A stretch of 64,000 nt of DNA from an uncultured bacterium (GTDB lineage Bacteria > Chlamydiota > Chlamydiia > Chlamydiales > SM23-39), in NCBI GenBank assembly GCA_964424735.1, contig CAYRJU010000004.1:16038-80037 (forward strand), read 5' to 3'. Each line of letters opens with the position of its first letter. Positions within the stretch are counted from its first letter, which is position 1. The notes beneath the pieces are model-generated. The model was not told where the DNA came from, did no database searches, and saw nothing but the letters and a program-made list of their open reading frames with translations. The translations under genes and the position numbers were made by a program. This document shows, piece by piece, positions 8,544-55,783 of the stretch.

Positions 8544-9227
8544 ATGGAAAAAATGGATTGGATACATTCTTTTGATCTTTTTCTCTTCGATTTCGATGGC
8601 TTGCTCGTCAAAACTGAACATCTTCACTATCAAGCTTATATCAATATGTTGGCCAGGAGGGGCTATAAGACAACCTTGAGTCTTTCCCATTTTTTTGAGC
8701 TCGCCCATTTTAGCTCCAGTGCTTGGAAAGAGGCGCTCTATGCCGATATTCCCGATTTGGACCCCAACTGGCAACTTCTCTATGAAGAGAAGAAGCAAAA
8801 CTATCTCGAGCTCGTCATTTCTGGAAAAGTGGAACTCATGCCGGGGGTGGAAAAGCTCCTCAAAGCCCTAGAAAAAAACCATCTACGCAGATGTGTAGTG
8901 ACGCATTCTTCTAAGCCTCACGTCGATCTCATCCGTGCACAAATGCCAATTCTTCAGACGCTTCCGCATTGGATCACGCGGGAAGATTACGAAAAGCCGA
9001 AGCCAGACCCTGAATGCTATTTAAAGGCGCTCATGCTCTATGGAAAACCGGGGGATCGGATCGTTGGCTTTGAGGATAGTTTGAGGGGGCTCAAAGCTTT
9101 AAGGCAAACTCCCGCTTTACCCATTCTCATCTGTCCCAAACACCATCCGCTCCTCTCGATCGCTCTCGAAGAGGGAGGCATACATTTTGAGTCTCTATCG
9201 GATATTTCCTTTAACGCCAAGTTTTAG
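8544..9227 (+). CDS. HAD-family phosphatase
   Basis: LFDFDGLLVKTE motif I, VVTHS, KPKPDPECY, GFEDS. Confidence 0.92.
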   Translation: MEKMDWIHSFDLFLFDFDGLLVKTEHLHYQAYINMLARRGYKTTLSLSHFFELAHFSSSAWKEALYADIPDLDPNWQLLYEEKKQNYLELVISGKVELMPGVEKLLKALEKNHLRRCVVTHSSKPHVDLIRAQMPILQTLPHWITREDYEKPKPDPECYLKALMLYGKPGDRIVGFEDSLRGLKALRQTPALPILICPKHHPLLSIALEEGGIHFESLSDISFNAKF

Positions 9228-9355
9228 AAGGGAACAGGATCTACAGGATCGTAAACGGCAGGATAAGAAGGATATTGCTCTTTCTTGAATTCCAATTTCC
9301 TCATTTTTTCCTGCGAATCCTTGCCACTTGTGATCCTGTAAATCCTGTTTTCCTC
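9227..9355. mobile_element. MITE-like palindromic element (CAGGAT-repeat type), 129 bp
   Basis: Arms AACAGGATCTACAGGATC / GATCCTGTAAATCCTGTT; TTA at 9224-9226 and 9356-9358; core shared with 47237-47385. Confidence 0.75.
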
Positions 9356-10117
9356 TTAATAATTGATTTGGACGAGGAAGAGGCCTTTGGCGGGTGCTGT
9401 GGCGGCTGCCTTGCGGCGATCGCGTGCTTTTAAGATGATAGGGATGTCTTGGGGAGAGAGTTTCCCCGCAGCGATCTCGAGGAGAGTGCCCGTGAGGTTG
9501 CGGACCATTTTGTACAAAAAGCCGTTCCCCTCAAACTCCAGACGGACTCCTCCTTTTTGTTCCACTACATCCAACCGGTAAAGAGTGCGGATCGGAGAGG
9601 TTTCTCTACCCGTATTGGCAAAAGAGGTGAAATCGTGCGTTCCCAAACACGCTTGAGCCCCTTTTTTCAAAAAATCGAGAGCAAAAGGGCCAAAGACCTG
9701 ATGCCGATAGAGCCTCGTAAAAGGATCTAAGACAGGGGACAGGTGGAGGTGATAGTGATAGATTTTTGAAGTTGCACTATAGCGAGCATGAAAATCATCT
9801 GGCACGGAACCTACTTGCAAAACGCGGATGTCGGAGGGGAGAAGGGCATTGAGAGAAAGGATCAGTTGCTTGGGCTCAAGCAAAGCGTCTATGTCAAAAT
9901 GGGCCGTTTGTCCACTTGCATGTACGCCCGCATCGGTCCTACTCGATCCAGTGAGATCGGTAGGTTTTCTCAAAACGGTTTGCAAGGCTTTTTGGACGAG
10001 CGGCTGAATGGCGAGCGCATTTTCTTGCACCTGCCAGCCGGCATAATGGGTCCCATCATAGCTCAAGATCAGCTTATAGCGCATAAATTTTTGAAAAAAA
10101 GAAGAAAGAGGACCCAA
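9356..10117 (-). CDS. truA: tRNA pseudouridine(38-40) synthase
   Basis: YDGTHYAGWQ, SSRTDAGVHA, FHARYSA, GNGFLYKMVR, APAKGLFL. Confidence 0.96.
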   Translation of the reverse strand: MGPLSSFFQKFMRYKLILSYDGTHYAGWQVQENALAIQPLVQKALQTVLRKPTDLTGSSRTDAGVHASGQTAHFDIDALLEPKQLILSLNALLPSDIRVLQVGSVPDDFHARYSATSKIYHYHLHLSPVLDPFTRLYRHQVFGPFALDFLKKGAQACLGTHDFTSFANTGRETSPIRTLYRLDVVEQKGGVRLEFEGNGFLYKMVRNLTGTLLEIAAGKLSPQDIPIILKARDRRKAAATAPAKGLFLVQINY

Positions 10118-10164
10118 AAGTACAATCTTTTGGGCCCGCCGGGCTTTTAGCCCAAGGGAGGAAA

Positions 10165-10425
10165 TTAAGAGAGGTGTTTGTTGACGAGTTTCGTCATTTC
10201 AAACATATTGACCGCTTTTTTGCCGCCAAAAATTTTGCCCAATTTGTCATCTGCATTGATGTTTCTTTTGTTTTTCGCATCTTGCAAATTATTTTTCTTG
10301 ATGTATGCCCAAAGTTTTTTTGTCACTTCAGTACGTGGCATTGGACCCTCACCTACTACGGCAGCAAGATCTTTGCTGGGCTTCATTGGTTGCATGAATT
10401 TTGAGTTTTTTTGCTTAGTGGCCAT
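10165..10425 (-). CDS. SWIB/MDM2 domain protein
   Basis: LAAVVGEGPMPRTEVTKKLWAYIKKNNLQD, MFEMTKLVNKHL. Confidence 0.93.
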   Translation of the reverse strand: MATKQKNSKFMQPMKPSKDLAAVVGEGPMPRTEVTKKLWAYIKKNNLQDAKNKRNINADDKLGKIFGGKKAVNMFEMTKLVNKHLS

Positions 10426-10633
10426 GTTTTGTTTCTCCTTTACAGGCTCAGTTTAGGGTTCTTGAGTTTGAGACGTTTATAGGCAATCTCTTACTCCTCA
10501 AAAGAAATCTTTTATCTGTCTGGATATTTAATAGTCAATCCATTTCTCTCGAGTATAGCGAAATCGGCTCTATTTTCTCTATAGGAAAACTTATCTTGTC
10601 TTTTTACTTACCTTCCTGGCAAATTCACTTTGT

Positions 10634-54004: not shown

Positions 54005-54076
54005 TGGGGCGTCGCCAAGCGGTAAGGCAGCGGTTTTTGGTACCGCCATGCGGAGGTTCGAATCCTTCCGCCCCAA
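54005..54076 (+). tRNA. tRNA-Gln (anticodon TTG), CCA not encoded
   Basis: Acceptor TGGGGCG/CGCCCCA, anticodon stem GCGGT-TTTTGGT-ACCGC, T-loop GGTTCGAATCC. Confidence 0.96.
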
Positions 54077-54088
54077 GTAAGAAAAAAG

Positions 54089-55018
54089 ATGAGTCAGATA
54101 CCCCTTTTGTTTGCCGGAACTTCCCACCCTGAGCTGGCTGCCCAGGTGGCAAAATGTTTGGGAGGCAAGGTGGGGAAAGTGGCCATCGAGACTTTTCCTG
54201 ACGGGGAAATTGGGGTGCAAATCCTCGAGAATGTAAGGGGACGGGATGTCTTTGTCATCCAGTCGCTAGCTAAGCACCCAAATCGATTCTTGATGGAATT
54301 GTTGATCTTGGTCGATGCGCTGAAAAGGGCGTCGGCTAAGAGCATTGTGGCGGTTTTGCCCTACTATGCGTATGCCAGGCAGGACCGAAAAGAGAAGGGG
54401 CGCGTGCCCATTACAGCGAGATTGATGGCCAATTTGCTCGAAAGAGCGGGAGTCACTCGCCTCCTGACAATGGATTTGCATACAGAGCAGATCCAGGGAT
54501 TTTTTGATATCCCTGTCGATCACTTGTATGCCCGGCCTCTTTTTGTGGAGGCTTTGAAAAAACGGCGTCTCAAAGATGCCGTGATTGTCTCTCCCGATGT
54601 GGGAAGCAATCGAATGGCGAGAAAATTCGCCGAAGATTTGAAGTTAGAGATCGCGATTGTCGATAAACGGCGCGTCGATGGGGGGCATGTAGAAGCGAAA
54701 GCTCTCATTGGTAGCGTCAAGGGCAAGGTTGCCATTCTCGTCGATGATATCAGTTCGACGGGGGAGACCTTGAAGATGGCAGCGCAAGTTTGTAAAAAAG
54801 AGGGCGCAAAGACCGTTTTGGCCGTTGTGACCCATGCTCTTTTATTGAGTGGGCATAAAGTGAAAGGTGTAGATGAGCTCTATGTGAGCGATTCGGTACC
54901 CCAAAAAGGAAAAATGCGAGATATGCATGTAGTTTCGATCGCACCGCTATTAGCGGAAGCCATCGATTGTGTGATTTCGGCAAAGTCGATCTCATCACTT
55001 TTTAAGAGGAAAATATGA
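54089..55018 (+). CDS. prs: Ribose-phosphate pyrophosphokinase
   Basis: FPDGE, PYYAYARQDRK, DLHTEQIQGFFD, VSPDVG, VDDISSTGET. Confidence 0.96.
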   Translation: MSQIPLLFAGTSHPELAAQVAKCLGGKVGKVAIETFPDGEIGVQILENVRGRDVFVIQSLAKHPNRFLMELLILVDALKRASAKSIVAVLPYYAYARQDRKEKGRVPITARLMANLLERAGVTRLLTMDLHTEQIQGFFDIPVDHLYARPLFVEALKKRRLKDAVIVSPDVGSNRMARKFAEDLKLEIAIVDKRRVDGGHVEAKALIGSVKGKVAILVDDISSTGETLKMAAQVCKKEGAKTVLAVVTHALLLSGHKVKGVDELYVSDSVPQKGKMRDMHVVSIAPLLAEAIDCVISAKSISSLFKRKI

Positions 55019-55584
55019 AATTGGAATTAGCAAAGAGAACAACCGGCAAAAAGGGAGAGAATAACAAACTCCGCCGGGAGGGAAATATCCCAGCCATTCT
55101 GTACAATTCGAAAAAGGAAGGGAAGCCAGTTGCCGTAAAAGGTGATGAATTCAAGGCGATTTTGCGCACGCTGAAGCCGGGCCTTCTTCCAACAACCGTG
55201 TTTGAACTGACGCTGGATGGCAAAAAGATGAAAGCCATTGTCAAAGAAGTTCAGTATCACGTGGCGAGCTATGAAATTGAGCATGTCGATTTCTTGCAAC
55301 TTTCCGATCAAGAGAAAGTGACGGTGAATGTTCCGATCCAACTCGTTGGAGCTGCTGACTGTGCAGGAGTTAAACTCGGTGGATTTATACGGCAAGTCAT
55401 CCGGTCGTTGAAAGTGACCTGTTTGCCAAAAGATATTCCCCAAGAATTTTCGATCGATGTTCGTGAACTCGGGATTGCAGAGTCCAAGAGATTGTCGGAT
55501 ATCGACATTCCGGCAAGCGTTCGACCCGTTGCCCAGATGAGCGAAGTGGCAGTCCTCGTCGGTAAGAAGGCGGGAGCGGCGTAA
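55015..55584 (+). CDS. rplY: 50S ribosomal protein L25/CTC
   Basis: LRREGNIPAILY, KEVQYH, HVDF, GVKLGG. Confidence 0.93.
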   Translation: MKLELAKRTTGKKGENNKLRREGNIPAILYNSKKEGKPVAVKGDEFKAILRTLKPGLLPTTVFELTLDGKKMKAIVKEVQYHVASYEIEHVDFLQLSDQEKVTVNVPIQLVGAADCAGVKLGGFIRQVIRSLKVTCLPKDIPQEFSIDVRELGIAESKRLSDIDIPASVRPVAQMSEVAVLVGKKAGAA

Positions 55585-55596
55585 TTGAGCTCTTTA

Positions 55597-55783
55597 GAGG
55601 CCCTTGCAAAATTCCACGGCAGCGAAAAATTGATGATTTTGAGCTCAGGTGGAGCCAGCAAGCTGGCCACGGTTCATTCGACGAGGCCAACTCCTGGAAC
55701 CTTTGGAGGGTTGGTCGAGGAGAATAAATGCAGATGAGCTCAAAAGAACAATTTTACGCGCCGAAGAATTTTGCAAGGGCCTC
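55597..55783. mobile_element. MITE-like palindromic element inserted in the 5' end of pth, 187 bp
   Basis: 18-bp perfect TIR GAGGCCCTTGCAAAATTC, imperfect arms to about 50 bp; TTTA duplicated at 55593-55596 and 55784-55787. Confidence 0.85.

Follow-up and report, generated by a model that had tools for sequence, protein, structure and literature searches.

The window analysed here, a stretch of 64,000 nucleotides (C4:16038-80037 of the assembly; contig CAYRJU010000004.1 of GCA_964424735.1), belongs to an uncultured bacterium of the Chlamydiales. The source genome, designated G000, is a metagenome-assembled genome (MAG) of 1.685 Mb in 55 contigs, with 46.7% GC and a completeness of 92%. Five palindromic elements were found in the window. 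As judged from their sequence, these are very probably small, non-coding and non-autonomous elements that resemble MITEs (miniature inverted-repeat transposable elements), with ends of the type found in the insertion sequence (IS) family IS5 and with duplications of the target triplet TWA (TTA or TAA). The IS5-type ends are carried by three, probably four, of the five.

Five palindromic elements in the window

A first-pass annotation had described five long hairpins of 129-187 bp, imperfect in their pairing, that begin with GAG or GAA and end with CTC or TTC. All five could be read off from the DNA at the coordinates given there, and none contains an open reading frame (ORF). Each is a long imperfect inverted repeat with an arm-to-arm identity of 0.75-0.95, and the fold z-score relative to shuffled sequence was -4.3 for element 1 and -13.8 for element 4. 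The five fall into four groups, i.e. family A (element 2), family I (element 3), family D (elements 1 and 4) and the family of element 5.

Element 1, 9227..9355, no strand: 129-bp family-D hairpin core, no IS5-type outer end; ends GAAGGGAACAGG.. / ..CCTGTTTTCCTC
Element 2, 28500..28667, no strand: 168-bp foldback MITE, family A; ends GAGACTATTAACGGAATTTGCAAG / CTTGCAAATTCCGTTAACAGTCTC
Element 3, 30393..30562, no strand: 170-bp foldback MITE, family I; ends GAGACTGACCAC / GTGGTCAGTCTC
Element 4, 47237..47385, no strand: 149-bp composite MITE ('D-long'), IS5-type end GAGGATGTTTGCAAATTCA / TGAATTTGCAACACCTTC around a family-D hairpin core
Element 5, 55597..55783, no strand: 187-bp foldback MITE, sister family; ends GAGGCCCTTGCAAAATTC / GAATTTTGCAAGGGCCTC

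Elements 2 and 3 both have the ends GAGACT..AGTCTC. The former is located in a divergent intergenic region, between TTA duplicates at 28497-28499 and 28668-28670, and the latter, with TTA at 30390-30392 and 30563-30565, is wedged on the TAG stop codon of tdk (29782-30393). Element 4 (GAGGAT..CCTTC) is flanked by CTA (47234-47236) and TTA (47386-47388), and the last base of the TAG of ORF 46839-47237 is the first G of the element. Element 1 (GAAGGG..CCTC; TTA at 9224-9226 and 9356-9358) lies exactly between the stop codons of the convergent ORFs 8544-9227 (+ strand) and 9356-10117 (- strand). It opens directly with the family-D core, and the 19-nt IS5-type end that precedes this core in element 4 is missing. 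Its TTA/TTA flanks and its empty orthologous sites (see below) fit an insertion, and a duplication is plausible; the other bare family-D cores have inconsistent flanks and no regular duplication. Element 5 (GAGGCC..GGCCTC) is bounded by the 4-bp direct repeat TTTA at 55593-55596 and 55784-55787.

The TTA flanks assigned to the five in the first-pass annotation were recovered as TTA/TTA for elements 1-3 and as CTA/TTA for element 4, but the right TTA of element 5 does not abut the CTC, being one base away, and the true repeat is TTTA. A single end and target signature is shared by elements 2, 3 and 4 (GAGRSTG, 3-bp TWA), but not by element 5 with its 4-bp repeat or by element 1, which has no IS5-type end. 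Two further observations were borne out: the motif TTGCAA is present in three arms (elements 2, 4 and 5), and in three cases the first G completes an upstream TAG, the ORFs ending exactly at 9227, 30393 and 47237.

GAG ends and TWA duplications in the genome

An ungapped scan of the genome for palindromes of at least 50 nt yielded about 113 loci in more than 10 families, about one per 15 kb; this count is approximate because the ungapped finder splits elements that contain indels. Family A has five copies that are 90-97% identical and, among the 31 genomes searched, occurs in G000 only, with none in the 30 relatives. The family of element 5 has a single full copy in G000.

About 25 GAG...CTC-ended elements are present genome-wide, and for these 25 the triplets abutting the left and the right end were compared. 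Identical TTA or TAA abutted both ends in 17/25, the background frequency of each of these trinucleotides being 0.96%. Two further copies fit with a qualification, i.e. element 5 (4-bp TTTA) and a copy on C14 with its end mutated to CTT. The end motif GAG[AG][CG]TGT[CT]T[GA]C was preceded by TWA in 13 of 17 occurrences, compared with 2.2% for GAG generally. In an unbiased scan of terminal-repeat pairs with identical 3-nt flanks, GAG plus TTA/TAA was one of only two signatures to appear. The enrichment of TTA flanks proposed from the window therefore extends, as TWA, to the whole genome, and the association of GAG ends with TWA is far beyond chance. The proposed density of one element per 13 kb holds within the window, but genome-wide the GAG type amounts to about one per 67 kb. 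A preference for Y-TTA-GA is seen in the reconstructed targets.

Simpler readings of the triplet were ruled out. TTA is not an extension of the palindrome, since the flanks are direct (TTA..TTA) and not complementary (TTA..TAA). D-long copies in one orientation carry either TTA or TAA, which indicates that the triplet lies outside the element. A 2-bp duplication of TA would let the third flank base vary freely, yet this base matches in 17/25. The latter point also bears on the idea that a transposase of the IS630/Tc1-mariner type, with its TA duplication, drives the elements. TA is central in every TWA, and a second MITE family of 165 bp is likewise flanked by TTA/TAA. However, the third base would be free with such an enzyme as well, the GAG ends match IS5-family ISs, and no match to DDE_3 (PF13358) was obtained in G000. 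This explanation is extremely improbable.

The second MITE family (TACCATCTATCAAAAATAAC...GATAAATGGTA; TACCATCTATC...GGTA) is non-palindromic and not related to the GAG-ended elements. Its nine copies have exact TTA or TAA duplications. Examples in G000 are:

C1:47524-47688, 165-bp MITE of the second family
C5:68073-68237, 165-bp MITE of the second family
C18:621-785, 165-bp MITE of the second family

Matching ends in IS5-family insertion sequences

Sixty genomes of the same taxonomic family were searched with the PF13586 profile. This yielded a partner IS, and a second, similar IS was found on a metagenome contig.

L032, 91-995: 905-bp partner IS in G072, contig DAHXLK010000040.1, a 'Chlamydiae bacterium' MAG of the same taxonomic family
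L054: second IS of 902 bp on a metagenome contig; ends GAGGGTGTTTTCAAAC, flanks TTA/TTA, orfB 63% identical to that of L032

Both ends of the L032 IS read GAGGGTGTTTGCAAAC and its flanks are TAA/TAA. It contains orfA (162-542) and orfB (539-979), which overlap in the -1 frame, with a slippery A_AAG_GGG at 503-509. The read-through product of 272 aa matches NF033580 (transpos_IS5_3) over its full length with 205 bits (cut-off 110), and also matches Pfam DUF4096 and DDE_Tnp_1. The closest cultured homologues of this transposase are 43-44% identical and annotated 'IS5 family transposase'; an IS of Paracoccus yeei, the transposase of which is 43% identical, also has GAG...CTC ends.

The D-long end GAGGGTGTTTGCAAA (e.g. 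C39:4926-5076) is identical in 15/15 positions to both ends of the L032 IS. Element 4 has the end GAGGATGTTTGCAAA, and the ends of window elements 2, 3 and 4 (GAGRSTGT, TTGCAA) match the inverted repeats of the 902-905-bp IS5-family ISs, the TTGCAA motif being part of the IS inverted repeat. The comparison of the ends with those of a transposase-bearing IS, suggested in the first-pass annotation, was in this way positive for L032 (15/15 with D-long) and for L054. Within the family, the end motif was found in 30/101 genomes and 19/53 genera, with about none for the reversed control, and its copies in other genomes were flanked by TAA/TAA or TTA/TTA (L087, L088, L089, L091 and L092).

Twice, two overlapping IS5-type ends were found to form a 22-bp palindrome, GAGGGTGTTTGCAAACACCCTC, with nothing else (L089 41-62 in G104:C7 and L090 45-66 in G089:C142). 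Direct TTA flanks one of them and direct TCA the other. They represent either minimal mobile units or hairpin MITEs that have collapsed.

Given these ends, the elements that bear them would owe their movement in trans to a DDE transposase of the IS5 family, with DUF4096 and DDE_Tnp_1 domains (NCBIfam transpos_IS5_3; IS427/IS1031-like). The enzyme would recognise the terminal GAGRSTGT..TTGCAA inverted repeats and make a 3-bp staggered cut at TWA, preferably in the context Y-TTA-GA, after which gap repair would duplicate TTA or TAA. The elements have several properties expected of MITEs derived from such an IS: inverted repeats that match those of an IS, a short duplication of the same type, small size with multiple copies, and variable presence at orthologous sites.

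Several observations weigh against this interpretation. No IS5-type DDE gene was detected in the 92%-complete G000 assembly with the PF01609, PF13586 and PF13359 profiles or with tblastn, and the sole trace in G000 is a DUF4096-only ORF of 115 aa that is 33% identical to the orfA of the IS. The contig with the L032 IS is 1.8 kb long and belongs to a binned MAG, so that a chlamydial origin of this IS rests on the binning and on the end motif in common. With the IS end, elements 2 and 3 have no more than GAGACTG(T) in common, about 7-9 terminal bases, and 8/25 GAG-ended copies are without a perfect duplication. Finally, the type of duplication tracks orientation, in family A in 5/5 copies (TAA in one orientation) and in D-long in a ratio of 8:2, which would fit a bias in orientation with respect to the asymmetric target Y-TTA-GA.

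The predicted IS5-family transposase with matching inverted repeats was thus present in a related chlamydial MAG and in a metagenome contig, but none is assembled in G000. There, tblastn with the partner transposase gave the DUF4096 remnant only, and no contig was seen to stop in a GAG-type end. A related-locus search of the genome contigs with L032 matched only the G072 contig itself. No close copy of the partner IS was found within the same genus, where the search gave the conserved DUF4096-only gene and, in G011, IS5-like elements that are unrelated, but nothing else. As no cognate transposase is assembled, the copies are either immobile at present or driven by an unassembled IS.

The DUF4096-only protein (G000 C1:15661-15888, - strand) consists of what is the N-terminal domain of IS5-type transposases and has no DDE part. 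It is present in 13/14 genomes of the genus (all but G011), partly in synteny. The gene is single-copy except in G008, which has a second, stop-interrupted match, and the identity in the ten relatives checked is 64-81%. It is a candidate for a domesticated transposase DNA-binding protein.

Empty sites and the insertion in pth

Empty orthologous sites, which the first-pass annotation had proposed to look for, were found for elements 5 and 1, and element 2 was absent from the corresponding intergenic region in G013 and G011. When the two flanks of element 5 were joined and used as a query, the alignment crossed the rplY-pth junction without a break in at least 11 genomes of the genus. In an alignment of eight relatives the pth start and ..(L/I)VGLGNPG come immediately after the rplY stop. 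When element 5 and one TTTA are removed from G000, the sequence reads TTG-S-S-L-V-V-G-L-G-N-P-G and its length equals that of the relatives. The uninterrupted junction and the equal length imply that element 5 was inserted behind codon 4 of pth specifically in this lineage. The present pth ORF (55728-56381) starts at the ATG at 55728 inside element 5, behind GAGGAG (55717-55722). The element contributes about 19 residues to pth (window 55584-56381).

The site of element 1 is empty in G004, G005, G007, G011 and G013, where the convergent gene ends abut directly. At the same junction G012 (L064, G012:C3:3950-4270) has a different 52-nt family-B mini palindrome (TATTAACCCGCG...GGGTTAATA), and G009 (L070, G009:C5:239780-240680) has about 660 extra bases. 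Judging by these differing occupants, the stop-to-stop junction is a site that was struck independently by different elements.

After tdk, at the site of element 3, the relatives show no element or possible remnants only. Just after tdk, G009 (L012, G009:C5) has TGAGACTCTCTTAG, an end-like GAGAC with TCTC and TTA, and G010 (L014, G010:C50) has a solo GGGACTGTCTAAG end (GGGACTGTCTAAGAAA). Both could be left over from earlier insertions at this stop codon, and they were not counted as proof. Base-exact empty sites were not obtained for elements 2, 3 and 4, as intergenic DNA at 70-78% identity does not align, and the right-flank gene of element 4 had no match in the relatives.

Placement on stop codons

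The position relative to stop codons was determined for 23 element copies, using ORFs of at least 100 aa. A stop codon was abutted by 13/23 copies; among all TWA sites the share was 2.9%, and among the intergenic ones about 16%. Insertion on stop codons is harmless because the stop is regenerated: TAA is duplicated, and a TAG arises where TTA is followed by the G of the element. Neither of the two convergent genes at element 1 has lost its stop codon. Insertions of this kind would persist since they do no harm, and selection, target preference or both would have concentrated the surviving copies at stop codons.

The sister family of element 5

The family of element 5 is present in G013, G037, G050, G062 and other genomes. 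Four full-length copies in G013 and G050 have the 4-bp direct repeats TAAA, TAAA, TAGG and TCCA; one more has the near-match CTAG/CTGG. A partial copy in G013 with the ends GAGTG..CACTC has the repeat TTCA, and none of these copies has TWA. By its ends and repeats, element 5 is assigned to a sister family, the end of which (GAGGC..TTGCAAAA) is related and which duplicates 4 bp of varied sequence. Element 5 would be the same kind of element as the others, with 4 bp duplicated on insertion.

Covarying hairpins and captured modules

The interiors of the elements are near-perfect foldbacks, with conserved islands between stems that differ among copies yet are complementary, and they are not remnants of an IS. 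Element 3 has as its interior (30413-30540) a hairpin core of 128 nt, conserved and co-varying, that was found in every genome of the genus searched, and beyond. In a set of 21 copies of this core from 13 genomes, 96.5% of the cells were paired and 24/51 pairs had changed on both sides, a value that was reached in 0/500 control shuffles. Sliding the partners abolished the covariation signal. Invariant islands (GGTTCTTTTGAGCC, GGCCAAAATAATCC) alternate with the co-varying stems. The rarity of G-U intermediates points to symmetry at the DNA level rather than to an RNA-only constraint. No element was matched by the Rfam covariance models at gathering score, which identified one tRNA only in the window.

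The strong covariation with conserved islands, the retention of the element-3 core across the whole genus and the 13/23 copies that abut stop codons could also be taken as signs of structural hairpins selected by the host (terminators or mRNA-stabilising stems) that have spread by recombination, their likeness to IS ends being secondary. This is very improbable: presence and absence vary at orthologous sites, one copy disrupts the start of pth, the target duplications are exact and the ends match those of ISs, and the scarce G-U pairs favour DNA-level symmetry over RNA-level constraint. The hairpins may have a secondary role as terminators.

Family D occurs in three forms: bare, inside IS5-type ends (13-16 copies) and, once, with a PDDEXK_3 gene in the loop. 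In this last copy (C19:17374-17809) the gene encodes a 118-aa PDDEXK_3 nuclease (PF13366, 'GxxExxY'; E = 3e-32). A family-G copy (C22:10764-11375) also carries a PDDEXK_3 gene in its loop (E = 9e-40). As the short D hairpins retain the 3' end of the ORF in the loop, they seem to have arisen by deletion from foldback elements that carried the nuclease. The three forms taken together indicate that D-long is a composite, in which the IS5-type ends are a shell around a captured hairpin.

The nuclease genes in the loops of the enlarged D and G copies, the bare D cores without consistent duplication such as element 1, and the long foldbacks that keep their pairing by almost purely Watson-Crick compensatory changes are also what might be seen if the hairpins resembled repetitive extragenic palindromes (REPs) or their paired form (REPINs). 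Such hairpins would travel in single-stranded form, through the action of a Y1 (HUH) transposase, i.e. a REP-associated tyrosine transposase (RAYT) or one of the IS200/IS605 type, or of the PD-(D/E)XK nuclease of the loop, and TWA would be a target preference. However, HUH elements make no duplications and exact 3-bp direct repeats are present in 17/25 copies, the ends are the same as those of a DDE-type IS, which is in turn flanked by a TWA duplication, and Y1_Tnp (PF01797) was not matched in G000. We consider this origin quite unlikely.

The IS5-type ends may be a reusable shell that repeatedly captures independent, structurally constrained hairpins, with those on stop codons perhaps co-opted by the host so that they form a dispersed functional network. 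Taken as a whole this is unlikely. Captured modules may be exemplified by the 128-nt core, which is kept by compensatory changes, and by the family-D core, which occurs elsewhere with a PD-(D/E)XK gene. If it were true, the co-opted hairpins could be terminators or putative binding sites for the DUF4096-only protein, for example.

Other palindromic repeats

A hairpin family characterised by TAATTCAACATGTCGGGGACAAAGCGGAT has copies in the window at 6535-6596, 36194-36298 and 50141-50220, and 11 loci genome-wide, some of 330-450 bp. At 57575-58181 of the window lies a palindrome of 607 nt with 127-nt arms (57680-57806 and 57953-58079) that are 99% complementary; it clusters with family F (TATCCTGCCGCGAACG...). 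In G011, a genome of the same genus, an IS5-like IS of 1134 bp (L052 633-1766, G011:C2) has the ends ATATGAACCTATC. These match palindromic family C of G000 (GAACCTATCCnAGTAAAATTT, about 173 bp, 6-7 copies), which makes this IS the probable parent of family C.

Significance and comparison with known systems

Chlamydial genomes are usually regarded as poor in mobile DNA, and no description of MITEs in Chlamydiae was found in the literature searched. Here, a 1.7-Mb environmental chlamydia has more than 100 hairpin repeats, one superfamily of which can be linked with a TWA target and with one particular transposase of the IS5 type. Recent change in the genome is marked by the elements, one of which has rebuilt the start of the essential gene pth. 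With over half of them on stop codons, they illustrate how a TWA-targeting element can spread harmlessly in a gene-dense genome. The co-varying interiors raise the question whether it is transposition or a host function that requires the foldback. Since elements of this kind break MAG assemblies and mislead gene callers, a catalogue would aid annotation.

Two ORFs with a frameshift are typical of the IS427 group (PMC3281130), and ISs of the IS1031 group have a single ORF and a three-nucleotide insertion site (PMC2516522). The IS427/IS1031 members of the IS5 family (NF033580) resemble the present elements and their partner IS in their GAG...CTC ends, a duplication of 2-4 bp or 3 bp, a length of about 900 bp and a DUF4096 + DDE_Tnp_1 transposase. 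The first-pass annotation had pointed to the IS1031 group, and the GAG ends and the 3-bp duplication agree with this, but the partner IS has two ORFs and a -1 frameshift, which is an IS427 trait. It resembles IS1031 in its three-nucleotide site. The assignment to the family is firm; because of the two ORFs and the frameshift the subgroup is not settled, and the partner IS looks more IS427-like than IS1031-like. Unlike these ISs, the elements described here are non-coding foldbacks of 129-187 bp, the interiors of which are unrelated to the IS beyond about 15 bp, and unlike in those systems the cognate IS is not assembled in the same genome.

The PIF/Harbinger transposases are relatives of IS5. 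Tourist-like MITEs such as mPing are non-autonomous, have a 3-bp TTA/TAA duplication and short inverted-repeat ends, and are moved in trans (PMC2836001, PMC4561436). The duplication, the type of ends and the proposed movement in trans are shared with the present elements. Tourist/PIF-Harbinger is, however, a eukaryotic system that needs DDE_Tnp_4 and a second ORF, whereas here PF13359 was not matched and the partner is of the bacterial IS5 type.

Like the Rickettsia palindromic elements (RPEs), these are palindromic repeats of 100-190 bp scattered in the genome of an intracellular bacterium, some of them inside genes, as is element 5 in pth. RPEs are known for their in-frame insertion into ORFs; they have no recognised IS partner and are not known to make a TWA duplication. 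There is no known sequence relationship between the two, and in contrast to RPEs the present elements are mostly intergenic, on stop codons, so that the comparison is an analogy only. The Correia elements of Neisseria (Correia repeat enclosed elements, CREE, or Neisseria miniature insertion sequences, NEMIS) have a TA duplication and 26-bp ends of the TATAGTGGATTAA type. The elements of the window differ from them in their 3-bp duplication and GAG ends, but share with them that they are abundant, small, bounded by inverted repeats and associated with a TA-centred duplication, and that they lie near genes and are able to supply expression signals.

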